DNA of 63,990 nucleotides, filler included. It is 9 parts of 9 records of this genome, joined end to end, with 100 filler letters (N's around TTAATTAATTAA, not from the genome) between each part and the next. Parts side by side here need not be neighbours in the genome. Positions count along the whole stretch, not along the records: positions 14,422 to 24,873 come from SRR31147125_27414; 8 more parts are not named here. One strand, written 5' to 3'. The stretch's first letter is position 1; every line of letters starts with the position of its first letter. A model generated the notes under the pieces. The model worked only from the letters and a program-made list of their open reading frames with translations, ran no database searches and was not told where the DNA came from. Made by a program: the position numbers and the translations under genes. Positions 5,548 to 58,412 of this stretch are shown here, one piece after another.

Positions 5548-5647
5548 NNNNNNNNNNNNNNNNNNNNNNNNNNNNNNNNNNNNNNNNNNNNTTAATTAAT
5601 TAANNNNNNNNNNNNNNNNNNNNNNNNNNNNNNNNNNNNNNNNNNNN
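5548..5647. other. Artificial contig-joining spacer (N-run + TTAATTAATTAA + N-run)
   Basis: 100-nt spacer with stops in all six frames, identical at eight places. Confidence 0.99.
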
Positions 5648-14321: not shown

Positions 14322-14421
14322 NNNNNNNNNNNNNNNNNNNNNNNNNNNNNNNNNNNNNNNNNNNNTTAATTAATTAANNNNNNNNNNNNNNNNNNNNNNN
14401 NNNNNNNNNNNNNNNNNNNNN
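14322..14421. other. Artificial contig-joining spacer
   Basis: Same 100-nt spacer. Confidence 0.99.
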
Positions 14422-14479
14422 AGTTTATCCCTCATAGCCTTGGCGACGTGGAACCCGAGGATGACAATGGTTTACCGGT

Positions 14480-15214
14480 ATGAAAATATTAGCACTAGAT
14501 ACTTCAACAATGATGGGTTCAATTGCAATACTTGACGATGATCAAGTTGTTGCTGAGCACCTGTTAAATGTTAACGTTACCCATTCTGAGAGATTGATTC
14601 CCTCTGTCGATCTTATGTTAGAACAGACAAATCTCTCACTAGATGATATGGACGGTTTTGGTGTAGCAATAGGTCCAGGTTCTTTTACAGGATTGAGAAT
14701 TGGACTTGGTGCTATAAAAGGCTTTTGTTTTGGTGTTGATAAGCCTGTAGTTGGAGTTTCTTCTTTAGAAGCATTGGCTTATAATGCTTATGGCCTAAAA
14801 TCTCCTGTTGTTTCTCTACTTGATGCAAGACGCGGTGAATACTATATCGCAATATATAATCTTAGCCCTGATGGAGGTTCTATCCTCCTAAAAGAACAGC
14901 TGTTGTCACCAGAAGCTGTTCTTGATCAACTTGAATCACTAAAACAAGATTTTATTGTTGTTGGTGATGGCCTTTATAGATTGAAAGATGAGATTGTCTC
15001 TAGAGTAGGTGAGAAGTTTATTGTTCCACCAGCTTCAATGATTCATACAAGAGCTTCAAACATAGCTTCTCTTGCATTAAAAAGGTTTAAGGCTGGAGAT
15101 GTAGATAATATAGATACTTTAGCACCAAACTATATAAGAAAGTCAGATGCAGAACTAACAAAAGAAGAAGTAATTGCAATTGTTCGTCATTGCGAGCGAA
15201 GCGCGGCAATCTAG
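14480..15214 (+). CDS. tsaB: tRNA threonylcarbamoyladenosine biosynthesis protein TsaB
   Basis: LALDTST, HSERL, GPGSFTGLRIG, DARRGE, P.YIR. Confidence 0.95.
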   Translation: MKILALDTSTMMGSIAILDDDQVVAEHLLNVNVTHSERLIPSVDLMLEQTNLSLDDMDGFGVAIGPGSFTGLRIGLGAIKGFCFGVDKPVVGVSSLEALAYNAYGLKSPVVSLLDARRGEYYIAIYNLSPDGGSILLKEQLLSPEAVLDQLESLKQDFIVVGDGLYRLKDEIVSRVGEKFIVPPASMIHTRASNIASLALKRFKAGDVDNIDTLAPNYIRKSDAELTKEEVIAIVRHCERSAAI

Positions 15215-15285
15215 ATAATAAAAGTGTGTTAGCTGGATCGCCACACCCTAAAGGGTTTACGTCAGAGGCGCACAAGCGCGATGAC
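15185..15285. repeat. REP/RPE-like palindromic composite repeat
   Basis: CGTCATTGCGAGCGAAGCGCGGCAATCT...GGATCGCCAC...CGCGATGAC with inverted GTCAT/ATGAC ends. Confidence 0.7.
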
Positions 15286-15305
15286 ACAAGATTATTGTAA
15301 CCTGG

Positions 15306-15764
15306 ATGACTCTAATGTTTAATATTGTTTTATTCCAACCCCAGATTCCACCAAATACCGGTAACATCGCAAGACTTTGTGTTGGTACAAATTCGAAACT
15401 TCATATTGTTAGGCCTATTCCTTTTTTTCTAGATAATAAAAGCATGAGACGTGCTGGGTGTGATTATTGGGACGATTTAAGTTTAGAATGTCACAACTCA
15501 CTTGAGGATTTGTATAAAAAAGCTTCTCCAGGCGCTACATTTTACTATATTACAAAGTTTGGTGAAAAGAATTATACAGATATCGAATTCAAAGACGGTG
15601 ACTATATAGTCTTCGGAAGCGAAACTAGCGGTCTCCCAGAAGAGGTTCGTAGAGATAACAAAGAAAGAACCCTCAAAATTCCAATGCCAGGCCCAATCAG
15701 GTCACACAACCTCTCCAATTCAGCAGCAATAGTTTTGTTTGAAGCAATAAGACAAATCTCGTAA
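15306..15764 (+). CDS. trmL: tRNA (cytidine/uridine-34 2'-O)-methyltransferase TrmL
   Basis: PQIPPNTGNIARLC, RRAGCDYW, FGSETSGLP, IPM...RSHNLSNS (SPOUT fold). Confidence 0.93.
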   Translation: MTLMFNIVLFQPQIPPNTGNIARLCVGTNSKLHIVRPIPFFLDNKSMRRAGCDYWDDLSLECHNSLEDLYKKASPGATFYYITKFGEKNYTDIEFKDGDYIVFGSETSGLPEEVRRDNKERTLKIPMPGPIRSHNLSNSAAIVLFEAIRQIS

Positions 15765-15838
15765 ATAGTGATTTGTGAATAGTGAGTAGTGCATATTTTA
15801 AACTATTTACGATTCACGACTAACCATTTACGATTTTA

Positions 15839-17389
15839 TCAATTCTCAATCATAGCAACAAAGGTTGAAGCTAGTTCTGGGTCAAACTGTGTCCCAATGT
15901 TTTGCTTCATTTCACTTATAGCCTTGTCGAGAGGAAGAGCAGGGCGGTATGGTTGATCAGTTGTCATCGTATCCCATGCCTCGGCAATCGCTAAAATACG
16001 AGCTCCCAAAGGGATGCTCTTTTCAGCTAACTGATCAGGATAACCCTCGCCGTTATACCACTCATGATGATGAAGAATTATCGACATCTCGTTTTTCCAG
16101 AATGGTGATTCACCTAAAAGCTGCAAACCAATTATTGGATGTTGTTTTACAAGATCAAATTCATTTGTGCTCAGTTTGTGACTTTTGAGTAGGATTTTTT
16201 TGTCGATGGCAACTTTGCCAATATCGTGAAGCATTCCACTTCTCTTGATTGTGACAATTTCCTCGTCACTCATACCTAGCTTTCTTGAAAGTCTCTCCGC
16301 AAAAAATGCAACGCGTTCAGCGTGAGCTGCCAAAAAGCGTTTATAGAATGGTCCATTCTCAAAAATATTAATGATTTCTTTGAAATAGCCCTGTTTTGTT
16401 TCTTCAGTTAGTTTATGAATTCTGACATTAAGTTCTTCAATTATTTTTTCATCTTCTGAAAGTTTAGGATGAATTGCGGCTTCGGCATCCTCGATTGTTT
16501 TGAATTGGTCTTTCCCACAGTGCTTAGCTTCAAGAAGGGCACGTCTTAGAGCGTTTATCCATTCATCTGATGTCTTGAAAGAAGGTCTGACTTCTGAAAT
16601 TCCTATGCTCGCTGTTGGATTCTGTGTTGTCTTGCCACGAGCGAATTTAGTTTTGTGAATCTCTTCTTGAATTCTCTCAGCAACTCTGGTTGCTGAATTT
16701 GAAGTCGTTGCCGGAAGAAGGACTATGTACTCATCACTACCAAGTCTTGCTGTAATATCTACTTCGCGAGTCATGTTTTGCAAGAGTGCTGCAAATTCAC
16801 ACAAGATAATATTACCAACATCATGACCATATGATTCATTAATTGTCTTAAGATCGTCAATCCCCAAGATAAGTGCTGAGATTGGATTCTTGTATCTCTT
16901 GGCTTTCTTGAATTCTACTTCAATGACGTTATCGATATATCTTCTATTGTGAAGGCCTGTTAAATCGTCTCTGGTTGTCAAGTTGACTAGTTCTGCAGAG
17001 GTGTCTTTAAGTTTTGTAATCAATTTACAACGTTCTTGGAGATGAATGATTACATACTTAAGTGCATTAGATTTAAATTCGGCAGCAGAAAGTACCTGAA
17101 CAGGCTTGTCTGAAATCGATTCATATGTCTCAAAATTGGAGTCGGCATTTGTAACAATGACAACAGGGATGTTTCCAGTGTTTGAGATGACGTCATAAAT
17201 AATTTTGTCGGATATCTTAGAGGCATCTATGAATATTATGTCAGGAATTTCTCCTGCAAAATCAGAATTTGCTTCCGCTGTTTGGTAGATAGTTATATCG
17301 GGCCAAAAGGGCATCAGTATAGACTTAATGGGTTCTATAGCATTGATATCACTGGTGATATATTGAATCGAAATAGCCTTCCTATTCAT
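15839..17389 (-). CDS. GGDEF (degenerate GSDEY) + HD-GYP cyclic-di-GMP protein with REC-like N-terminus
   Basis: DDLTGLHNRR, YGHDVGN, ARLGSDEY; LHDIGK, HHEWYNGEGYP, AWDTMTTDQPYR, GTQFDP. Confidence 0.9.
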   Translation of the reverse strand: MNRKAISIQYITSDINAIEPIKSILMPFWPDITIYQTAEANSDFAGEIPDIIFIDASKISDKIIYDVISNTGNIPVVIVTNADSNFETYESISDKPVQVLSAAEFKSNALKYVIIHLQERCKLITKLKDTSAELVNLTTRDDLTGLHNRRYIDNVIEVEFKKAKRYKNPISALILGIDDLKTINESYGHDVGNIILCEFAALLQNMTREVDITARLGSDEYIVLLPATTSNSATRVAERIQEEIHKTKFARGKTTQNPTASIGISEVRPSFKTSDEWINALRRALLEAKHCGKDQFKTIEDAEAAIHPKLSEDEKIIEELNVRIHKLTEETKQGYFKEIINIFENGPFYKRFLAAHAERVAFFAERLSRKLGMSDEEIVTIKRSGMLHDIGKVAIDKKILLKSHKLSTNEFDLVKQHPIIGLQLLGESPFWKNEMSIILHHHEWYNGEGYPDQLAEKSIPLGARILAIAEAWDTMTTDQPYRPALPLDKAISEMKQNIGTQFDPELASTFVAMIEN

Positions 17390-17508
17390 CGTACCCCCTT
17401 TTTGTAAGGGCGTATAATAGAACTTATTTTTCTCTTTTTCAAGAGGAATCGATATCTATTCCCGCCCGCCGCCCCTAAAATGAGTTTTTGAAACATTTAG
17501 GTGCTCCA

Positions 17509-17651
17509 GGGGAGGAAATCATAAGTTATAAAAAGACACGGTTCATTTTGGGACGGCCCAAAATGCCCGTCATACTCGGTAATTCTTATCATGATATCCC
17601 GGTCGTCAAAATTCCCTCCGTATGCTTTTTATAACTTATGATTTCCTCCCC
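17509..17651. repeat. 143-bp element bounded by perfect 27-bp inverted repeats (MITE-like)
   Basis: GGGGAGGAAATCATAAGTTATAAAAAG (17509-17535) and its exact reverse complement (17625-17651). Confidence 0.8.
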
Positions 17652-17740
17652 ACGATCTATTTATATTATTCAAAAAATCGTTTTATAGAAAAAATTATAG
17701 ATAGGTTGTTTTTCCGGAAGCTGTTATAAATGAAGAACTT

Positions 17741-18822
17741 ATGAAGAGAATTTTGATATTAATTGCTTTGCTTATTGTTCTTAGCCCCTCAACCCTTTTT
17801 GCCTCTTTTAATAAGGAAATGGGCGTTGATCAGGAGTTGATTGATCAAGCTATCTTAGGCAAGGAGATGCTTTTTAATCGTCAGTATGGTCAGGCATTAA
17901 AGTTGTTCAGCAGACTTGAAAAAGAGTATTCAGATTCACCAACTGGAAAAGGTGGCAAGATGGCTGTTTGGCAGCTTAAGATGTTTGAGAATGAAGATTT
18001 TAGGTTTAAATCTCAGTATGAAAAAGCAGCTGAAGATTTTAATGCATTCGAAGTGAAGAGATTGAGGCAAGGTGATGTCCCTGTTTGGGATTTGTTTGTG
18101 TTTGGTGCAGCAGATGGAATGATGGGATTTTTTAGGTCGAGAGAGAGTAAGTGGTTATCAGCGCTAAAGAAGGCTCTTCATGCAACAAGAATGCTTAAGC
18201 AGCTCAAATGGAAGGCCCCTGATTTTATTGATGCAGATATGGGATTTGGTTCTTATGAATACTGGCAGTCGGCCATGACTCAAAGGATTAAGATTTTACC
18301 TTTTTTTAAGGACAACCGCCAAGAGGGCATAAGGCTCCTAAATGAAGTTGTTAAAAAGGGAGTATATGCAAAGGATTTGGCTAGAGCAAATCTTGTCTTT
18401 ATCTATAGTAATGAAAAGGATTACGTTAGAGCGGCGAAAGTTGCAGATGAGCTGATTTCAAAATATCCAAACAATATAATAATCAGATTTTTAAGAGCTG
18501 AAATATACTTTGATACAAAAGACTACGACAACGCCCTAAAACTCTTCCAAAAAATCTACGCCCAAGATTCAGGAATTACAAGATCGCTACTGTTCCAGGG
18601 TGTCATATTCTACAAACAAAAAAATTCGATGAATCAAAAGCAATCCTAGAAAAATACGTAAGCCTCGATAAGAATAAGATCTGGAATGCAGTAGGTCTCT
18701 ACTGGTTAGGAAGAGTAGCTGAAAAAAAGAAAGACATCCCTCTAGCCCGTCACTACTACAATGCATCAATCAAAAAAGATGGGTTTAAGCCTGCTAAAAA
18801 GAGGTTAAAAGCTCTGAGGTAA
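17741..18822 (+). CDS. Secreted tetratricopeptide-repeat protein; frameshift in A-run near 18618-18624
   Basis: Signal peptide and helical TPR-like repeats; shifted frame continues KFDESKAILEKY..LYWLGRVAE to TAA 18822. Confidence 0.75.
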
Positions 18823-18950
18823 TTTATTTCCATGACCCTCCTACGCGTAAAGCTTCGGAGGGTATTGTCGTTCTAGCTTCCTTCGTCACAAGAACGACAA
18901 TAGATAAAAACTCTTGGATTTCCTTAAAATTTCATATATGTCATCCTTCC

Positions 18951-20336
18951 ATGGGTATTACTATTGTCCAAAAAAGTGACCTTAAGAAAAAGAAGAAAAA
19001 TCCGACTACGGCCTTGATTTTGGCTGGTGGAGCAATAACGGGTGGCTCGTTTAAGGCCGGTGGTGTTAAGGCTCTAAACGACTATATGTCGAACTACTCT
19101 GTGAATGACTTTGATGTCTATCTCGGTATTAGTTCAGGCTCTCTTCTTGTAGCGCCTTTGGCGGGAGGTATTAAGCCTGAAGAAATCTTGAAGTCGTTTG
19201 ACGGTACCTCAGAGCGCTTTTCAGAGCTTTCTCCATGGAACTTTTATTGGCCAAACCTTAAAGAAATGTTCTATAGACCGCTAAGCTTTTGGTATAGCCA
19301 GCTTGCAAATCTACCTAGAATGGCTTTTTCGCTCTTTACAAGTATGCCAGTTATGTTGATGCAGTTTGCTAATCTTTTTCAATCGATTGTTAGAAATCCA
19401 ACTCCTGAAAATTACGATGCTTTAATGAAGGCGGTTTCAAATGTTGTTTCTGACTTTTCACTGCCTTCAATACTTCAGCTCTTGCCGTCGGGTGTTTTTG
19501 ATAACTCTTCAATCGAAAGATACTTAAGACTCAATATTAAAAAGAATCGCCTGACAAATAATTTTCTGGTTACTGAAAAGCTGACCGGAAAGCGTCTCTA
19601 TATTAGCGCGATGGCGGTCGATAGTGCTAAGCGTGTTGTTTTTGGGCCTGATGAGAATAGTGAAGCAACAATTTCACAGGCTGTTCAGGCATCAACTGCA
19701 ATGCCTGGTTTTTATAAGCCTGCTCGTATTAATGGTGTTGATTATGTCGATGGCGGGGTCCAAGAAACAGCAAATATCGATATAGCAATTGAAAAAGGTG
19801 CTGATCTAATTATCTGTTACAATCCTTTTAGACCGTATGATAACAAAGTATTGCTCGAGTATATTCGTAAAGAGAATAAATATACTTCAAAAAACAGAAG
19901 GCTTTCAGATGATGGTGTTATGGCTGTCATCAATCAGATATTCAGAGCGATGTTTCATAGCAGACTTCATGTTGCAATTGAACAGTATAAGACAGATCCG
20001 AATTTTAAAGGTGATATTATTCTGATCGAGCCAAAAGCAGACGATGCTGCATTCTTTGGTCTTAATCCTTTGGTATTTGGTAACCGAATCAAGGCTGCAG
20101 CTCTCGGTTATGAATCGGTCAGAAATTCAATTGACGAACACTATCCAAAGATAGCGAAGATTTTAAATTCCTATGATATTAAGATAAGTAAGAAGGGTGT
20201 TGAAGACGAGATAAGTCGTTTTAAAGATGTTAAAGAGAGCAGAGAAAAACTTCGTGAAGTTATTGAAGAGAGCAGCAAGCCTAAAACAGCAAGAAAGCCC
20301 AAAAAGAAAACAACTCGACGAAAAAAAAGTAACTAG
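18951..20336 (+). CDS. Patatin-like phospholipase family protein
   Basis: LAGGAITG (oxyanion), GISSG (GxSxG), YVDGG. Confidence 0.9.
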   Translation: MGITIVQKSDLKKKKKNPTTALILAGGAITGGSFKAGGVKALNDYMSNYSVNDFDVYLGISSGSLLVAPLAGGIKPEEILKSFDGTSERFSELSPWNFYWPNLKEMFYRPLSFWYSQLANLPRMAFSLFTSMPVMLMQFANLFQSIVRNPTPENYDALMKAVSNVVSDFSLPSILQLLPSGVFDNSSIERYLRLNIKKNRLTNNFLVTEKLTGKRLYISAMAVDSAKRVVFGPDENSEATISQAVQASTAMPGFYKPARINGVDYVDGGVQETANIDIAIEKGADLIICYNPFRPYDNKVLLEYIRKENKYTSKNRRLSDDGVMAVINQIFRAMFHSRLHVAIEQYKTDPNFKGDIILIEPKADDAAFFGLNPLVFGNRIKAAALGYESVRNSIDEHYPKIAKILNSYDIKISKKGVEDEISRFKDVKESREKLREVIEESSKPKTARKPKKKTTRRKKSN

Positions 20337-20344
20337 GATTTTTA

Positions 20345-21717
20345 ATGAAACAGCAGACTCTTTTTGGGGGTGGTGACAACTCCCAGAAGTCATCTATATC
20401 AGAGAAAAAAAGACTCAAAAAAAGTCTCCAAAGAAAGTTGTGAGACCTCAGACAGAAACTCCTGAGCCTACTATTCAAAAGCCAAAAGAGATGCCTGTGG
20501 TTGTACAACCAAAACCCGAACCGCAAAAGCCCAAAATATATAGTGTTACGGATATAGTCTCCGGAATGCGAAGTGCTATTGAAAAGAATTATGCAAATGT
20601 TTGGGTTGTAGGTGAAGTAAGTGGTTTCAAAAGACATAGCTCTGGACATTGTTATTTCACTTTAAAAGATAGCAATTCAGTTTTGCCTTCTGCAATATTC
20701 AGAGGTGCTGCTAGTAAAATTAAGTTTAAAATAGAAGATGGGCAAGAGTTGATTTGCCACGGTAAAGCTTCCCTATATCAGAAGGGTGGTTCGTATCAAC
20801 TGATCGTCGACTATGCTGAACCAAAGGGTGTTGGCAAGTTGCAGCTTGCATTCGAACAATTGAAGAAGAAGCTTCAGGCTGAAGGTCTCTTTGATAAAGC
20901 TCATAAAAAGCCTATTCCTTTTATTCCCAAAAAAATTGGTGTGATTACATCGCCAACGGGTGCTGCGGTTAGAGATATTCTAAAGGTCTTACGCAGGCGT
21001 TTCCCAAATATCGAAGTCTTGGTTGTTCCAGCTCGCGTTCAGGGTCCAGGAAGTGCTGAAGAGGTCGCAGAGGGCATTAATCTCTTAAATCAGAGGGATG
21101 ACATAGATGTCATGATTGTAGGTCGTGGAGGAGGTTCTCTTGAGGATCTATGGGCGTTTAATGAGGAAGTGGTTGCCAGAGCAATATTTGCTTCGAAAAT
21201 ACCGGTGATAAGCGCCGTTGGGCATGAAGTTGACTTTACTATCGCGGATTTTGTAGCAGATTTTAGGGCTCCGACTCCTTCTGCAGCGGCTGAACATGCT
21301 GTTCCGGTGAGTGAAGATCTCAGGCAGTATATAATAAGAGGTCAAAGGCAGCTTGTTTTTGAGTTGAGGAGAGGTGTTAAAAAACAGGTAGATAGGGTAC
21401 AAGAGTTGAAGCAAAGAATGGCGCCTCCAACAAAAAGATTTCCTGATTACTATAGATACATCGATAACCTAAAAGACAGAATGAACTATTCTGTGCAAGT
21501 AGCTGTAAAACAAAAAGAATCTTTAATTAAGGGGTTGGCGGCTGAGTTGAATCATCTCTCACCGCTGGCCGTATTGAGTAAGGGCTATTCGGTAGCGACT
21601 AAATCGGGTAGTAAAGAGGCTGTTAGGACTACAAAGAGCCTTAAAAAGGGTGATGAACTGGTTTTACGCTTTAACAAGGGGTCTGCTAACGCCAAAGTGA
21701 CGAAAATAGTTGACTAA
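20345..21717 (+). CDS. xseA: Exodeoxyribonuclease VII large subunit; probable start ATG 20345 with a 1-nt slip in the A7 runs at 20405-20423
   Basis: VWVVGEVS, SGHCYFTLKD, IGVITSPTGAAVRD, GRGGGSLEDLWAFNEE, SAVGHEVD, RAPTPSAAAE. Confidence 0.95.
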
Positions 21718-21866
21718 TCAAGGATTTAGGTGTGATAAACAAGACTACTTTAAGAATGCCAATTTTTTTAGAATTGGCATTCTTAAGGTTTAGTCGCTGT
21801 TATGCTTAGCTTTAATAAGTGATTATTAAAGCGGTTGAGTATAAGAAGGCCCTGGAGTAATAAGAG

Positions 21867-21901
21867 GTTGTCATCCTCGGGTCAAGCCCGAGGATGACAA
21901 C
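21867..21901. repeat. REP-like palindrome; related copies at 14454-14467 and 24844-24872
   Basis: GTTGTCATCCTCGGG-TCAAG-CCCGAGGATGACAAC, perfect 15-bp stem; both ends of contig C break in related repeats. Confidence 0.8.
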
Positions 21902-21940
21902 TATATTAATTTAGATGATGGATTTTTAATGGAGTAGGTT

Positions 21941-22192
21941 ATGGCGAAAAAGAGCGCAGATGAGAGTAAAGTTAGTTATGAAGAAGCAATTGCTAAGCTT
22001 GAGGAAGCTGTAAGGGGCCTTGAAAAGGGTGATTTGACACTTGAAGATTCACTTTCAACTTTTGAAGAGGGCATCAAGTGGTCGAGACTTTGTGAGAAAA
22101 AATTGACGGAAGCTAAAGGCAAGGTCGAAATGCTTGTGAAGAAAGCCGGTGGTGAAATTTCAACAGAAAATTTTGAATCAACAGAAATGTAA
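21941..22192 (+). CDS. xseB: Exodeoxyribonuclease VII small subunit
   Basis: YEEAIAKLEEAVRGLEKGDLTLEDSLSTFEEGI; lies between xseA and ispA. Confidence 0.95.
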   Translation: MAKKSADESKVSYEEAIAKLEEAVRGLEKGDLTLEDSLSTFEEGIKWSRLCEKKLTEAKGKVEMLVKKAGGEISTENFESTEM

Positions 22193-22213
22193 ACATTTAG
22201 ATGAGGTTAATAA

Positions 22214-23104
22214 ATGGATATAAAAAAGTACTTGGATGAAAAGAAAGTTGGAGTAGATGCAGCTCTTGAGAGATATTTATCAGAAGAGAGAAAGTATCCT
22301 GAAAATCTTTATAAATCTATGCACTATAGTGTAATGGCTGGTGGAAAGCGCATCAGACCTGTTCTTGCAATAGCTGCCACAGAGGCCGTTGGTGGTGACT
22401 TAAAACAGGTCATGCCTCTTGCTTGTGCGTTAGAGATGATTCATACTTTTTCATTAATACACGACGATCTTCCTTCAATGGATGATGATGACTATAGACG
22501 TGGAATGGCAACAAACCACAAGGTATTTGGCGAAGGTATTGCTGTGCTTGCGGGTGACGCCCTTTTGGCCGAAGCTTTTTACTGTTTAACACATCCAGAA
22601 CTTTTGGACGCTGTTCCAGCTCCTCTTCTTTTGGAAGTTGTTAGAGATATCTCTGCAGCAACTGGCCCGCGTGGAATGGTCGGTGGCCAGGTTTATGATA
22701 TTGAGTCTGAAGGTAAAAAGATTTCAGTTGAAGAACTTGAAAGACTTCATTTGTATAAGACCGGTTGTTTGCTTACAGTCTCCGTTACGAGTGGTGCAAA
22801 AATTGCCGGGGCAAACGGCGATCACTTGAAAGCATTAACTAGATATGGTGAGGCAATTGGACTCGCATTTCAGATAATCGACGATATTTTAGATATTGAA
22901 GGTGATGAAGAGGCCTTGGGAAAACCAATAGGTTCGGATGTTTCCAAGGATAAGTCAACTTTTCCTGCATTGATTGGAATGAAAGAATCGAAAGAACGTG
23001 CAAATAGCTTGATTGAAATTGCAGAGAAATCGTTAGATATTTTTGGAGAGAGTGCAGCACCTCTAAGAGCTATAGCACGTTACATTATCGAAAGAAGAAA
23101 TTAG
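22214..23104 (+). CDS. ispA: Farnesyl/geranylgeranyl diphosphate synthase
   Basis: GGKRIRP, SLIHDDLPSMDDDDYRRG, LAGDALL, AFQIIDDILD, GKPIGSD. Confidence 0.95.
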   Translation: MDIKKYLDEKKVGVDAALERYLSEERKYPENLYKSMHYSVMAGGKRIRPVLAIAATEAVGGDLKQVMPLACALEMIHTFSLIHDDLPSMDDDDYRRGMATNHKVFGEGIAVLAGDALLAEAFYCLTHPELLDAVPAPLLLEVVRDISAATGPRGMVGGQVYDIESEGKKISVEELERLHLYKTGCLLTVSVTSGAKIAGANGDHLKALTRYGEAIGLAFQIIDDILDIEGDEEALGKPIGSDVSKDKSTFPALIGMKESKERANSLIEIAEKSLDIFGESAAPLRAIARYIIERRN

Positions 23105-23108
23105 TTTT

Positions 23109-23534
23109 ATGAAGAATATTGTTACAAAAATTGAGCTGTCGACTGATGATCCGATTCAAGTTGTCAATTTGACTGACAAGGTTAACGCACTTGTGAAAAT
23201 ATCGGAAGTAAAGAATGGGCAGATCAATCTGATTTCAAATCATACAACTGCTTCGATAAATATTAATGAGTGCGAAGAGAAACTTCAAAAAGACATGGTC
23301 ACATTCTTGAAGAGATTTGTTCCAAAAGACGGTGACTACCAGCATAATATAAATACTCTAGACGGCCGTGACAATGCTCACTCGCATTTGATGGGCATGC
23401 TTATGAACGCCTCTGAAACAATTCCTCTACTTGATGGCGAAATGGTTCTTGGAAAATGGCAGTCGATATTTTTTATCGAACTGGATGGCCCAAGAGATAA
23501 AAGAAGTATCACCATCCAAATCATAGGAGAGTAA
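23109..23534 (+). CDS. yjbQ: YjbQ/UPF0047 family protein
   Basis: [32 protein letters not shown]. Confidence 0.92.
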
Positions 23535-23535
23535 A

Positions 23536-24831
23536 ATGAATAGTAAAGATAGAGAAGGTTTCTTTGCAGATCCCAATGATCTTAATATGGATGATTATCT
23601 TGTCTTTGACTATTTCTTTGAATCGGTAACACCTCCGGAAGAAGCGGCGGCTCACCTCTGTATGGAACAGTCGACTGCACAATGGAAGAGGGTTGATGTT
23701 GAGGAAGATTTTAGAGATAAGTTTGGCGCAAAGGTTATTGATCTTGTTATTGAGCGTGAGTTGCCGCTGCCTACATATCCGACTTTAAGTGAAAAAGAAG
23801 TTCCAACCTATGCTTGCCGTGTGAAGATTGCGCATCCCCATGGTAATTTTGGTCCGAGAATTCCAAATTTAATAACAGCTGCCTGTGGAGAGGGTGCTTT
23901 CTTTTCTCCTGGAATTATTAATCTAAAACTCTTTGATATCGAATTTCCAGAGAGCTATTTGAAGAATTTTGAAGGTCCAAAGTTTGGAATAGATGGACTG
24001 AGAGATGCTCTTAATGTCTATGATCGTCCAATCTTTTTTGGTGTAATTAAGCCTAATGTTGGTTTAGCACCAGAACCTTTTGCTAAGCTTGCTTATGATA
24101 GTTGGCTTGGTGGTTTAGATATTGCGAAAGATGATGAGATGCTCTGTGATACAGAGTGGTCACCGTTAAAAGAGAGAGCGAAGACTCTAGGTGATGCGAG
24201 AAGACGTGCAGAAGAAGAGACTGGTGAAAAGAAGATCTATTTAGCAAATATCACAGACGAAGTTGATCGTCTTTTAGAACTTCATGATATTGCTGTTGCA
24301 GGTGGTGCAAATGCTTTGATGGTAAATGGTATGACGACAGGTCTAAGTGCCGTTAGAATGCTAAGAAAACATACAAAAGTTCCTCTGGTAGGTCATTTTG
24401 ATTTTATTGCGGCCTTTGGGAGGATGCCTGGTTTTGGTGTTCATTCAAAACTGCTTACTAAGCTCCAGAGATTGTGCGGTTTTGATGCCATTATTATGCC
24501 GGGTTTTGGTGAGAGAATGAAGACGCCAGAATATGAAGTTATGTTGAACGTCGATGAGTGTTTGAAAGACTTTGGTAATATTAAAAAATCTCTACCTGTT
24601 CCTGGCGGAAGTGATTGGGCAGGAACTCTTTCAAATGTTTATGAGAAGCTTGGAACAGTCGATTTTGGGTTTGTCCCTGGTCGTGGAGTCTTTGGCCATC
24701 CGATGGGGCCAAAAGGCGGCGCTGCCAGTTTGCGCCAAGCATGGAGTGCTATTAAAGAGGGCGCTTCAATTGAAGATCATGCCCCGCATAAACCAGAACT
24801 AAAATCAGCAATAGAAGCCTTTTCGAAATAA
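23536..24831 (+). CDS. RuBisCO-like protein (form IV, resembling the IV-Photo/Chlorobium type)
   Basis: [67 protein letters not shown]; these match my recollection of the Chlorobaculum tepidum RLP along its length. Confidence 0.92.
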
Positions 24832-24873
24832 GTTTGTTTGTGATGTCATCCTCGGACTTGATCCGGGGATCTA

Positions 24874-24973
24874 NNNNNNNNNNNNNNNNNNNNNNNNNNN
24901 NNNNNNNNNNNNNNNNNTTAATTAATTAANNNNNNNNNNNNNNNNNNNNNNNNNNNNNNNNNNNNNNNNNNNN
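24874..24973. other. Artificial contig-joining spacer
   Basis: Same 100-nt spacer. Confidence 0.99.
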
Positions 24974-31492: not shown

Positions 31493-31592
31493 NNNNNNNN
31501 NNNNNNNNNNNNNNNNNNNNNNNNNNNNNNNNNNNNTTAATTAATTAANNNNNNNNNNNNNNNNNNNNNNNNNNNNNNNNNNNNNNNNNNNN
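31493..31592. other. Artificial contig-joining spacer
   Basis: Same 100-nt spacer. Confidence 0.99.
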
Positions 31593-34488: not shown

Positions 34489-36576
34489 ATGGTGGATATT
34501 ATTATCGGTATAGCCGGAGCATCCGGTTCGGGGAAGACTACTATTGCAAACAGAATTCATGAACCTCTAGGCAATGATGCTGTTTTGATAACCCACGACT
34601 CGTATTATAAAAATCACGATGAATTAAGTTTTGAGGAAAGAAGTAAAATCAATTATGACCACCCGGAATCTTTAGAGTCGGATTTATTGGTAAAGCATTT
34701 ATTGGAGTTAAAGGCAGGCAAAAACATTCACATACCTGAATACGATTATACTCTGCACAGAAGATGTGATAAAACCAAAAAAGTCAAACCCAAATCTGTT
34801 ATTTTAATTGAAGGAATACTTATATTTACCGAACCAAAATTAAGAGAATTAATTGATTTAAAGATATATGTAGATACCGACCCTGATATCTGCTTGATAC
34901 GAAGAATAAAAAGAGACGTAAAGAAAAGAAAAAGAAGTTTGGATTCTGTTTTAGATCAGTATTTGAATACAGTTAAACCCATGTATCATGAATTTGTTGA
35001 ACCATCCAAAAGATATGCTGATATTATTGTTCCTGAAGGCGGCTATAATGATGCTGCCAACGGAATAATCATAAATAGAGCAAAGACCATAATTAAAAAA
35101 GCAAAAAAAGCAAAGAAGAAAAAAATGGCTAGATATGAACGAAGGGAAACGACTTTTGAAAAAACACTGAGGAGAATAATATTATTGTTAATATATACCT
35201 TAGTAATTTTAATTTTTGTGTTTATAGTATCTATGCTTATGGATACATACTCATCAAAGGAAAATGTTTCTTATGAGACGGGAACAGTAAGCCCTGAAAG
35301 TACACAATATGAAAATATAACTGATTATATTTCAGCTGTGCAGCAGACAGCAACACCTCAGATAACCAATACACCATATATTTTGTCGCAGCTTCCCTAT
35401 GGTCAGCCTGAGGATTATGGATTTGACTCTGAAAAGCTGGCTTCATTGGATGAGTATATCCAACAGCAGATTGATGATGGTTTTCCCGGTGCGGTACTTA
35501 TGATTGCAAAGGACGGTCATATAGTATTTCACAAAGCATACGGTTATTCAAAGAAGTATGAAGGCATGAGCTTAATGAGCCAATTTGAGGACATGCAGCT
35601 GGATACTATGTTTGATTTAGCATCCCTTTCAAAAATATATTCGACAACGTTTAGTATAATGAAATTAGTCGATGACGGCTATATATCTCTAGATGGCAAA
35701 GTATCAGAATATTTATCCGGATATACAGGCGCTAACAAAGACGAGGTAACCGTAAAAATGCTGCTTACTCATAGCGCAGGGTATGTAGAAAATTATTATT
35801 TCTATAAAGATGACAGTGAATATAAAACATTTGACAGAAATACGGTCTATGATTATGTTAAGCAAATCCCGCTGGACAGTGTTCCGGGGAGTAAATATGA
35901 TTATAATGATTTGAATTATATTCTGCTTGGTATGATTGTAGAGGAAGTTTCGGGAATGAGAATAGATGAGTACGCAAAAGAGAATATTTATGAGCCGTTA
36001 GGTATAGAAAATCAGGTAACATATCGACCGCTTGATATAGGCATTGAAAAATCCCAAATCGCAGCTACAGAAAGACTGGGCAATACGAGAGACGGTTCGG
36101 TATATTTTGACGGCATAAGGCAGTATACATTGCAGGGTGAGGTGCATGATGAAAACGCATATTACTGTATGGATCAGGTTTCAGGTCATGCAGGATTATT
36201 TGCTACAAGCTACGGATTGACAGTTTTAAATCAAGTATTACTTAATAAGGGTGAATATGAGGGAGTACAGATATACAGCGAGGAAACCATTGATAATTGG
36301 CTTAAAGTGATAAATAATAAAAAGTATCAGCTTGGGTTTTGGAATGCAGAGGTCGCCAGCGAAAAGTTAGAATCCTATGTGTCGGATTCAACATTTTATC
36401 ATAATGGGTGGACGGGAACTGCGACAATTGTTGACACAGAAAATAATCTGTCTATAATATTACTGACTAATAAGAGGCATTCACCATGTCCCGACGGTGA
36501 TTTTGAAGGGACGGATTACAGTATAGCCTATTATGTGTCGGTAATACAAAGGGTGTATAAAGCTCTTGATAGCTAG
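34489..36576 (+). CDS. udk: Uridine kinase in frame with a TM-anchored beta-lactamase-family serine hydrolase (possibly two genes; second start ATG 35125)
   Basis: IGIAGASGSGKTT, NYDHPES, EGILIF, EPSKRYADIIVP; then TM helix, FDLASLSK (SxxK), YDYN, GEVHDENA, GHAGLF, HNGWTGT. Confidence 0.85.
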   Translation: MVDIIIGIAGASGSGKTTIANRIHEPLGNDAVLITHDSYYKNHDELSFEERSKINYDHPESLESDLLVKHLLELKAGKNIHIPEYDYTLHRRCDKTKKVKPKSVILIEGILIFTEPKLRELIDLKIYVDTDPDICLIRRIKRDVKKRKRSLDSVLDQYLNTVKPMYHEFVEPSKRYADIIVPEGGYNDAANGIIINRAKTIIKKAKKAKKKKMARYERRETTFEKTLRRIILLLIYTLVILIFVFIVSMLMDTYSSKENVSYETGTVSPESTQYENITDYISAVQQTATPQITNTPYILSQLPYGQPEDYGFDSEKLASLDEYIQQQIDDGFPGAVLMIAKDGHIVFHKAYGYSKKYEGMSLMSQFEDMQLDTMFDLASLSKIYSTTFSIMKLVDDGYISLDGKVSEYLSGYTGANKDEVTVKMLLTHSAGYVENYYFYKDDSEYKTFDRNTVYDYVKQIPLDSVPGSKYDYNDLNYILLGMIVEEVSGMRIDEYAKENIYEPLGIENQVTYRPLDIGIEKSQIAATERLGNTRDGSVYFDGIRQYTLQGEVHDENAYYCMDQVSGHAGLFATSYGLTVLNQVLLNKGEYEGVQIYSEETIDNWLKVINNKKYQLGFWNAEVASEKLESYVSDSTFYHNGWTGTATIVDTENNLSIILLTNKRHSPCPDGDFEGTDYSIAYYVSVIQRVYKALDS

Positions 36577-36926: not shown

Positions 36927-37026
36927 NNNNNNNNNNNNNNNNNNNNNNNNNNNNNNNNNNNNNNNNNNNNTTAATTAATTAANNNNNNNNNNNNNNNNNN
37001 NNNNNNNNNNNNNNNNNNNNNNNNNN
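36927..37026. other. Artificial contig-joining spacer
   Basis: Same 100-nt spacer. Confidence 0.99.
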
Positions 37027-43279: not shown

Positions 43280-43379
43280 NNNNNNNNNNNNNNNNNNNNN
43301 NNNNNNNNNNNNNNNNNNNNNNNTTAATTAATTAANNNNNNNNNNNNNNNNNNNNNNNNNNNNNNNNNNNNNNNNNNNN
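43280..43379. other. Artificial contig-joining spacer
   Basis: Same 100-nt spacer. Confidence 0.99.
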
Positions 43380-50949: not shown

Positions 50950-51049
50950 NNNNNNNNNNNNNNNNNNNNNNNNNNNNNNNNNNNNNNNNNNNNTTAATTA
51001 ATTAANNNNNNNNNNNNNNNNNNNNNNNNNNNNNNNNNNNNNNNNNNNN
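50950..51049. other. Artificial contig-joining spacer
   Basis: Same 100-nt spacer. Confidence 0.99.
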
Positions 51050-58312: not shown

Positions 58313-58412
58313 NNNNNNNNNNNNNNNNNNNNNNNNNNNNNNNNNNNNNNNNNNNNTTAATTAATTAANNNNNNNNNNNNNNNNNNNNNNNNNNNNNNNN
58401 NNNNNNNNNNNN
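58313..58412. other. Artificial contig-joining spacer
   Basis: Same 100-nt spacer. Confidence 0.99.

Follow-up and report, generated by a model that had tools for sequence, protein, structure and literature searches.

Conserved pairing of a dedicated YjbQ with an IV-Photo-like RuBisCO-like protein beside genes of isoprenoid-precursor synthesis

A RuBisCO-like protein (RLP) is tied to isoprenoid synthesis in the MTA-isoprenoid shunt (MTA, 5'-methylthioadenosine) of Rhodospirillum rubrum and Rhodopseudomonas palustris. There, an RLP of the DeepYkr clade acts as methylthioribulose-1-phosphate 1,3-isomerase and, with a cupin methylsulfurylase, leads to DXP (1-deoxy-D-xylulose 5-phosphate). RLPs of the IV-Photo clade have long had solved structures (1tel, 1ykw, 2qyg), yet a 2018 paper gives no known substrate for them (PMC5893883). 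The solved structures of the YjbQ/UPF0047 family (1vph, 1ve0, 2p6c, 1xbf, 1vmh and others) were all deposited as hypothetical proteins, and the role of yjbQ was still called unclear in a 2026 preprint (10.64898/2026.06.26.734693). A 2023 survey, in the part cited here, counts 181 cultured species with all enzymes of the methylerythritol phosphate (MEP) pathway except the DXP synthase Dxs, 172 of them unexplained (PMC10663253). In E. coli the canonical gene order is xseB-ispA-dxs-yajO, with thiL and thiI flanking the region. Here we describe a yjbQ gene and a gene for an IV-Photo-like RLP that follow xseA-xseB-ispA on one contig of a 63,990-nt DNA stretch, the whole of which is called the window below. 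An initial annotation had placed this pair in the dxs position of the operon and had suggested a two-enzyme sugar-phosphate or sulfur-salvage module, possibly supplying isoprenoid or thiamine precursors. We show that the pair is conserved, that its YjbQ is a dedicated subfamily, and that the pair or this YjbQ repeatedly stands beside dxs, ispA or ispG.

The RLP-bearing contig corresponds to window positions 14422-24873, and its genes run on the + strand in the order TPR gene, patatin-like gene, xseA, xseB, ispA, yjbQ, RLP. The coordinates bear out the tight spacing reported for the last three genes. The farnesyl diphosphate synthase gene ispA (22214..23104, TAG at 23102-23104) is separated by 4 nt from yjbQ (23109..23534, TAA at 23532-23534), and 1 nt lies between the yjbQ stop and the start of the RLP gene (23536..24831, 431 aa), whose ATG is preceded by an AGGAG located 7 nt 5'. 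IspA matched NF045485 at 379.5 bits (cut-off 275) and PF00348 at 206 bits. The yjbQ product belongs to UPF0047 by PF01894 (132.6 bits, cut-off 27, residues 20-138) and TIGR00149 (121.3 bits, cut-off 67.75), and its best PDB match had an E-value of 3e-27.

The RLP matched the catalytic domain of the RuBisCO large chain (PF00016, 184.4 bits, cut-off 30.1; PF02788, 24 bits) and stayed under all NCBIfam cut-offs for true RuBisCO (TIGR03326, 240.8 vs 497; PRK04208, 217 vs 438; PRK13475, 151 vs 489). Judged by these profile cut-offs, it is a form IV protein and not a carboxylating RuBisCO of forms I-III. Assignment as an MtnW/YkrW-type 2,3-diketo-5-methylthiopentyl-1-phosphate enolase was rejected on the same kind of evidence (TIGR03332, 165.3 bits against a cut-off of 513.6; NF007095, 196.7 against 409). 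The likeness to the RLP of green sulfur bacteria was confirmed over the full length: among solved structures the best matches were the RLP of Chlorobium tepidum (1tel/1ykw, E 1e-188) and RLP2 of R. palustris (2qyg, E 2e-183), and all other solved RuBisCO-family chains matched at 4e-53 or weaker. The KDDE carbamylation/Mg motif is kept as well, at K198-D199-D200-E201, and was invariant across 22 of 22 aligned relatives. In a tree of the RLP family, which did not hold all form IV clades, the window RLP branched beside the phototroph clade but outside it. Its sister clade also contains two relatives that are uncultured non-phototrophs and lies next to RLPs of Desulfobacterota and Chloroflexota. 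Phototrophy genes, whose lack the initial annotation had found striking, are indeed absent from the contig, a statement that rests on 10.4 kb only because the contig ends just after the RLP; genes for type I and type II reaction centres were also absent from the five nearest relatives (0/5 each). As an oddity, the point did not hold up. RLPs ~70% identical to that of the window are common in metagenome-assembled genomes (MAGs) of Desulfobacterales, Anaerolineae and other non-phototrophs, and since so many Desulfobacterota and Chloroflexota MAGs carry IV-Photo-like RLPs, such a protein outside phototrophs is ordinary. The literature searched held no established activity for the clade of this RLP and no substrate for IV-Photo RLPs.

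Conservation of the pair was followed in the genome of the closest syntenic locus, L001, and 60 genomes given as its relatives (G001-G061), to which all genome-level counts below refer, and not to the window's own genome. Outside this group, the best 80 genome loci for the RLP and 80 metagenome loci from a scan with an alignment of RLP-type YjbQs were used, and adjacency was counted from tblastn. RLP was found in 38 of the 61 relatives. A same-strand yjbQ lay 2-216 nt upstream of it in 29 of the 38, with RLP identities to the window down to 46%; it was missing there in eight, and in one the locus was cut by a contig end. Of 20 fetched relative loci, the order was ispA-yjbQ-RLP in 15, yjbQ-RLP in two whose short flank showed no ispA, and ispA-RLP without yjbQ in three. 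The pair recurred in 17 of the best 80 genome loci, namely in Chromatiaceae, Ectothiorhodospira, Rhodocyclaceae, six alphaproteobacterial MAGs, one Chloroherpetonaceae MAG, L001 and L002. In the 80 metagenome loci, RLP directly followed yjbQ in 23, eight of which also had ispA directly upstream; dxs directly followed yjbQ in 19; one was of the alphaproteobacterial type (L168, with xseB-dxs upstream of yjbQ); and 12 were cut off. The remaining 25, with neither RLP nor dxs, carry YjbQs 38-47% identical to the window copy that appear to be another subfamily. When only the 48 best metagenome YjbQ loci were considered, RLP or dxs adjoined yjbQ in 40, seven were cut off and one had neither. The adjacency seen in the window is thus conserved across phyla. 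Beside the pair, the lineages had no third gene in common.

YjbQ is a multi-copy family in these genomes, with mostly 2-4 matches, in 60 of the 61 relatives. In the YjbQ tree, 33 RLP-adjacent copies, with which the window YjbQ groups, were split from 14 sampled paralogues of the same genomes by a 95/94 branch, and the RLP-adjacent copies were 40-61% identical to the window YjbQ vs 18-36% for the paralogues. The RLP-linked clade spans phyla, and in four RLP-less genomes for which all YjbQ matches were fetched (G060, G044, G035 and G050) only paralogue types were present. These results identify a two-gene module with its own YjbQ clade. On the RLP tree, adjacency to yjbQ needs at least four changes, and two large groups have no adjacent yjbQ, 34 RLPs of Chlorobiaceae and a clade of 29 RLPs of the Desulfobacterota/Chloroflexota type. 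A search for fused YjbQ proteins of 248-2000 aa returned none at E <= 1e-10 among 202 candidates, which is weak evidence, and a predicted complex of RLP and YjbQ scored 0.00, which we read neither way. No paper linking YjbQ with an RLP was found in the literature search, though a 2007 review by Tabita may hold an earlier mention. For papers naming yjbQ and dxs, no title or abstract opening treated gene adjacency, a result that, beyond PMC3010111, concerns titles and abstract openings.

We then considered the placement of the module among genes of the MEP pathway and found four arrangements: ispA-yjbQ-RLP, xseB-dxs-(SOUL)-yjbQ-RLP, yjbQ-dxs and dxs-yjbQ-RLP-ispG. The first is that of the 15 relative and eight metagenome loci described above. 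In all six alphaproteobacterial loci dxs lay <=1.5 kb upstream of yjbQ-RLP, and it was preceded by xseB in five; the sixth (L053) is cut off upstream. In Chlorobiaceae, an RLP-type YjbQ (56-57% identical) was encoded directly upstream of dxs, ~50 kb from the RLP, in both genomes tested. Contig L197 carries dxs, yjbQ, RLP and ispG in this order, all on the same strand and spaced by 12, 1 and 52 nt. The survey of ispA-RLP linkage therefore revealed a link of the module to isoprenoid-precursor genes that takes several forms.

The surroundings of the window operon were compared with L001, whose RLP, ispA and xseA are 77%, 82% and 74% identical to those of the window, and whose order (GGDEF-HD, TPR, patatin, xseA, xseB, ispA, yjbQ, RLP) is as in the window. 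The patatin-xseA-xseB-ispA part is also common to G012, G054 and G060. Past the RLP, L001 continues with a 200-aa gene, an opposite-strand carotenoid-synthesis gene with a response regulator, and gyrA, and L002 with mfd on the opposite strand. In neither locus does dxs lie downstream of the RLP, which speaks against a dxs hidden just beyond the contig end; a complete dxs is located on a different contig in both genomes (771 and 642 bits), in G001 between hemA and a SerB-like gene. In G012 (patatin, xseA, ispA, yjbQ, RLP, tlyA) the pair sits between ispA and tlyA, which is the dxs slot. The proposed dxs position of the pair thus holds in syntenic relatives, and the premise that dxs canonically follows xseB-ispA was confirmed in E. 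coli. The window itself cannot show what follows the RLP, because its contig ends within a palindromic repeat 42 nt past the RLP stop codon. Separately, we observed a gene of the PF04240 carotenoid-biosynthesis family (L001:10068-10784 (-), L171:7713-8405 (-)), accompanied by an HD-domain response regulator, just downstream of the operon.

Given this placement, the distribution of dxs itself was of interest. By TIGR00204 over its cut-off, and in the same genomes by PF13292, dxs was present in 10 of the 61 relatives; Dxr was found in 60, an MtnA-family isomerase (PF01008, ~350 aa) in 60, and hydroxymethylglutaryl-CoA reductase in 0 of 61. The relatives are a group-wide case of the published puzzle of an MEP pathway without Dxs. 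A hidden divergent Dxs was considered and rejected, as the ~610-aa thiamine diphosphate enzymes of dxs-less genomes scored 143-178 bits with Transketolase_N vs 30-35 bits with DXP_synthase_N. These enzymes are 24-27% identical to E. coli TktA and 23-27% to Dxs, and are read as putative short-type transketolases. Several relatives had no full-length transketolase-like proteins other than such short ones of ~610 aa (L295:1102-2925, L296:1224-3035, L297:919-2601 and L298:728-2557).

A ThiE-family gene (PF02581) was present in 5/5 genomes tested, with and without the pair and including dxs-less ones, and the dxs-less genomes must therefore still need DXP. The same result bears on a possible role of YjbQ as a thiamine-phosphate synthase, the one activity reported for it. 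By that account, YjbQ would be kept near dxs since DXP feeds the thiazole moiety and Dxs needs thiamine diphosphate, and the RLP would be a passenger. The NCBIfam name 'secondary thiamine-phosphate synthase enzyme YjbQ' and the thiL and thiI genes at the E. coli operon agree with it, but ThiE is already there, the reported YjbQ activity is called low-level and not physiological in the part of PMC3010111 cited here, and it would go unexplained why this YjbQ clade is so tightly coupled to the RLP across phyla. We regard a thiamine-phosphate-synthase role of YjbQ as highly improbable.

From the gene context, we tentatively propose, at less than even confidence, that the pair would form a two-enzyme module that acts at the DXP node and probably supplies DXP from a sugar phosphate of a salvage route. 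In this proposal the RLP would enolise or isomerise a ketopentose phosphate, most likely a 5-deoxy- or 5-substituted ribulose-1-phosphate from the salvage of S-adenosylmethionine by-products. Its 1,3-isomerisation would yield DXP or a 1-substituted xylulose-5-phosphate, with 5-deoxyribulose-1-phosphate giving DXP directly. YjbQ might complete or correct the product, either by a further keto-enol or epimerisation step or by standing in for the R. rubrum cupin. Where a genome has Dxs, as the closest relatives of the window do, the module could serve as a secondary supply line; in many related dxs-less genomes it may have become the main one. All the contexts point to 1-deoxy or 5-deoxy pentulose phosphates as candidate substrates. 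Two published activities are relevant here: R. palustris RLP2 slowly converts methylthioribulose-1-phosphate to 1-methylthioxylulose-5-phosphate in vitro (as cited in PMC5893883), and, as the one other functional lead for YjbQ, a route to a 2-oxo-3-hydroxy-4-phospho acid opens in E. coli when its YjbQ is overexpressed (PMC3010111, part cited). The LsrF-type thiolase that precedes the RLP in Chlorobiaceae and the MtnA-family genes of the relatives are further leads on the chemistry, and the 51 relatives with no recognisable dxs, 31 of which have the pair, leave a gap that such a supply line could fill.

Several observations weigh against this proposal. RLP presence does not track dxs absence: of the genomes with dxs, six have an RLP and four lack it, and of those without dxs, 32 have one and 19 do not (odds ratio 0.89, p = 1). 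The pair is thus no general substitute for Dxs, and it coexists with dxs in the closest relatives, where dxs is kept elsewhere in the genome, as well as in Chlorobiaceae, Alphaproteobacteria and L197. An IV-Photo RLP is missing from 20 dxs-less genomes, among them G031 with its RLP of a different type, so the group must have some further source of DXP. In R. palustris, the cited sections of PMC5893883 report that deletion of rlp2 had no effect on MTA use or methanethiol release and that rlp1 ald2 double mutants released negligible methanethiol, results that argue against methylthioribulose-1-phosphate being the physiological substrate in that organism. Nine loci of Chromatiaceae, Ectothiorhodospira, Rhodocyclaceae and Chloroherpeton had no homologue of dxs, ispG or dxr within 8 kb of the pair, and the ispA linkage within the relatives may be one inherited arrangement and not many independent events. 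Finally, the Desulfobacterota/Chloroflexota RLP clade, sister to that of the window, had no partner YjbQ in 3/3 genomes tested (Desulfobacterales and Chloroflexota, with paralogue-level YjbQs only), and its RLPs have other sugar-phosphate neighbours. Of the suggestion that the module supplies isoprenoid precursors, the linkage to MEP genes in four arrangements thus stands, and two specific forms do not: simple replacement of dxs, and an R. rubrum-type MTA route, given the negligible role of the R. palustris Photo RLP2 in MTA metabolism in that account (PMC5893883).

The loci without MEP genes nearby and the RpiB, xylose-isomerase-like and SorC genes beside other IV-Photo-like RLPs also count towards a sugar-phosphate or sulfur/stress function unrelated to isoprenoids. 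The post-ispA slot left by dxs would then be a permissive, well-expressed site whose content was vertically inherited, and this slot does hold zinc alcohol dehydrogenase, UbiD and TPR genes in RLP-less relatives. A C. tepidum RLP mutant affected in sulfur oxidation and stress response, as stated in the cited sections of PMC5893883, agrees as well. Such a function would not account for four different placements next to dxs, ispA or ispG in lineages as distant as Chlorobiaceae, Alphaproteobacteria and the relatives of the window, for the YjbQ half staying with dxs where the pair is split in Chlorobiaceae, or for RLP or dxs adjoining yjbQ in 40 of the 48 best metagenome loci. We hold it to be unlikely.

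The proposed DXP-supplying module also has to be viewed against what else fills the slot. Zinc alcohol dehydrogenases follow or face ispA in four of five genomes lacking both RLP and dxs. One zinc alcohol dehydrogenase type, ADH-B, occurs in 19 of the 61 genomes: in 0/37 with an IV-Photo-like RLP, in 18/23 without any RLP, and in G031. It was found next to ispA or to a cluster of LsrF-like and alcohol dehydrogenase genes at L117:4030-4986 (G060), L118:4659-6038 (G050), L229:3698-4780 (G020) and L227:6539-7717 (G044). The 51 dxs-less relatives, which have Dxr but no hydroxymethylglutaryl-CoA reductase, comprise 31 with the pair, 17 with ADH-B and three with neither, the last being among the smallest genomes. 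The RLP and ADH-B states interleave on a tree of Dxr from 60 genomes, in which one gene stands in for the species tree, with at least nine changes of the RLP state and at least five of the ADH-B state on well-supported branches. In a phylogenetically corrected comparison of nine independent pairs, RLP and ADH-B were opposite in 4-5 and the same in none, an underpowered comparison (p = 0.06-0.125). As a separate observation, the dxs matches of two ADH-B genomes are split over two frames (G025:C3:69212-70930 and G045:C200:3569-5302), which could reflect a frameshift, a decaying gene or a sequencing error.

An LsrF-type thiolase (NF006081) was found in eight of the 61 relatives, seven without any RLP and the eighth being G031 with its other-type RLP, and in 0/37 with an IV-Photo RLP. 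It is paired with a zinc alcohol dehydrogenase in genomes that have neither dxs nor the RLP, adjoins another alcohol dehydrogenase type in five of the eight genomes and lies 1.1 kb from dxs in one (G009); the loci are L228:4926-6748, L229:4777-6746, L232:5786-7622, L230:2565-6927 and L231:5795-9689. The known substrate of LsrF is 1-deoxy-pentanedione 5-phosphate, one oxidation step from DXP. An LsrF-type thiolase with a zinc alcohol dehydrogenase would fit a route in which acetyl-CoA and dihydroxyacetone phosphate (DHAP) give pentanedione phosphate, whose reduction yields DXP. A bolder form of the proposal, which we consider doubtful, would make the pair a Dxs-independent DXP route that enabled dxs loss in this uncultured delta-proteobacteria-like group. 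The zinc alcohol dehydrogenase would take over this function at the same operon position in sister genomes, some of which would also use the LsrF-type thiolase, acting first on acetyl-CoA and DHAP.

In Chlorobiaceae, an LsrF-type thiolase (NF006081, 510 bits) directly precedes the RLP in 33 of 34 loci; in these loci, L025:4831-9284 among them, a bifunctional aldolase/short-chain dehydrogenase (SDR; NF006193) and the thiolase lie upstream and an SDR downstream. This flanking of the RLP by thiolase and SDR genes would suit a role of the pair in repair or trimming of the DXP pool. RuBisCO-family enzymes form 1-deoxy-pentodiulose-5-phosphate as a side product, and in such a role the RLP would enolise DXP, a wrong isomer such as 1-deoxyribulose-5-phosphate, or a diketo by-product. 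YjbQ and RLP would then either regenerate DXP or hand the compound over for degradation, which in Chlorobiaceae would run via the adjacent LsrF-type thiolase and yield DHAP and acetyl-CoA. Repair would also be compatible with the missing complementarity between RLP and dxs and with the coexistence of the pair with dxs, even in one operon (L197, Alphaproteobacteria, and yjbQ-dxs in Chlorobiaceae). It leaves unexplained the retention of the pair in the dxs slot of 31 dxs-less genomes and the presence of an unrelated dehydrogenase at that position in pair-less genomes, and the absence of LsrF-like genes from all 37 relatives with an IV-Photo RLP, with G031 and its other-type RLP as the sole overlap, also counts against it. 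Repair of the DXP pool is in our view rather unlikely.

The remaining features concern the window and the ends of its RLP contig. The window consists of nine contigs of 5.3-10.5 kb each with a G+C content of 28.5%-40%, joined by eight artificial, non-biological N44-TTAATTAATTAA-N44 linkers (5548-5647, 14322-14421, 24874-24973, 31493-31592, 36927-37026, 43280-43379, 50950-51049 and 58313-58412). Genes of Bacteroidota type (SusD, TonB receptor, GH97, T9SS tail) were found on several of the remaining contigs. The window is probably a mixture of organisms, and the other contigs need not share the organism of the RLP contig. On one of them, a 695-aa open reading frame (34489-36576, +) combines a domain of the PRK/uridine-kinase family with one of the beta-lactamase family. 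The window contains no dxs. Upstream of ispA, the exodeoxyribonuclease VII genes are xseA, which opens the conserved block, for the large subunit (20440..21717, +; TIGR00237, 469.9 bits; PF02601) and xseB for the small subunit (21941..22192, +; PF02609, 69.5 bits; TIGR01280, 74.8 bits). Between them lies a perfect palindrome with a 17-bp stem (21866..21902), similar to repetitive extragenic palindromic (REP) elements and with a terminator-like match on both strands, and a half copy occupies the contig end (24843..24873). The core GTCATCCTCGG occurs at 14455-14465, 21866-21902 and 24845-24855, with a weaker copy at 17569-17579, and the 11-mer recurs at both contig ends (5 matches vs 0.3 expected). 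The 10,453-nt Logan contig of the source run stops at the same point, with a depth of 198 in its last bin vs 18 elsewhere. The REP-like repeat is the cause of the assembly break after the RLP.

Taken together, the context of the pair gives a testable functional clue for two orphan families, IV-Photo RLP and YjbQ/UPF0047, at a point where three questions meet: the substrate of IV-Photo RLPs, the function of YjbQ/UPF0047, and the MEP pathway without Dxs. It restricts the search for substrates to 1-deoxy and 5-deoxy pentulose phosphates and identifies a partner enzyme that may have been missing from earlier RLP2 assays. Cultured organisms suited to testing are available in Chlorobaculum, Rhodopseudomonas, Ectothiorhodospira and Thiorhodococcus. 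If a Dxs-independent DXP route were true, it would answer the puzzle of the MEP pathway without Dxs and provide first physiological functions for both families.

Compared with the E. coli xseB-ispA-dxs(-yajO) operon, the window has the same xseB-ispA order. It differs at the next position, which in E. coli is dxs, followed by yajO (annotated in RefSeq as an alternative DXP-forming enzyme), and in the window is yjbQ plus RLP, with the dxs of the closest relatives on another contig. The window YjbQ matches the Pfam and TIGRFAM profiles of its family far above their cut-offs, but it falls in a separate clade that travels with IV-Photo RLP or dxs, and the relatives' genomes bear one to three further YjbQ paralogues. 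With the IV-Photo RLPs of Chlorobaculum tepidum and R. palustris (RLP2), the window RLP shares the KDDE motif and a full-length match, whereas it belongs to a sister clade and is flanked by ispA and yjbQ instead of the aldolase/SDR, LsrF-like and SDR genes of Chlorobiaceae. The MTA-isoprenoid shunt resembles the present module in combining an RLP with one small partner enzyme and in a tie to isoprenoid genes and, here presumably, to DXP. The MtnA-family genes of 60/61 relatives are candidates for the upstream supply of a ribulose-1-phosphate derivative, and Photo-type RLP2 performs the same isomerisation weakly in vitro in the account of PMC5893883. In contrast to the shunt, the window RLP is IV-Photo-like and not DeepYkr, the R. 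palustris rlp2 deletion has no MTA phenotype according to the same sections, the pair lies inside an xseB-ispA operon, and the adjacent partner is YjbQ and not a cupin, with no genome-wide cupin search made. By analogy, the pair would be a variant of the RLP-cupin shunt to DXP with a different RLP clade and a different partner.

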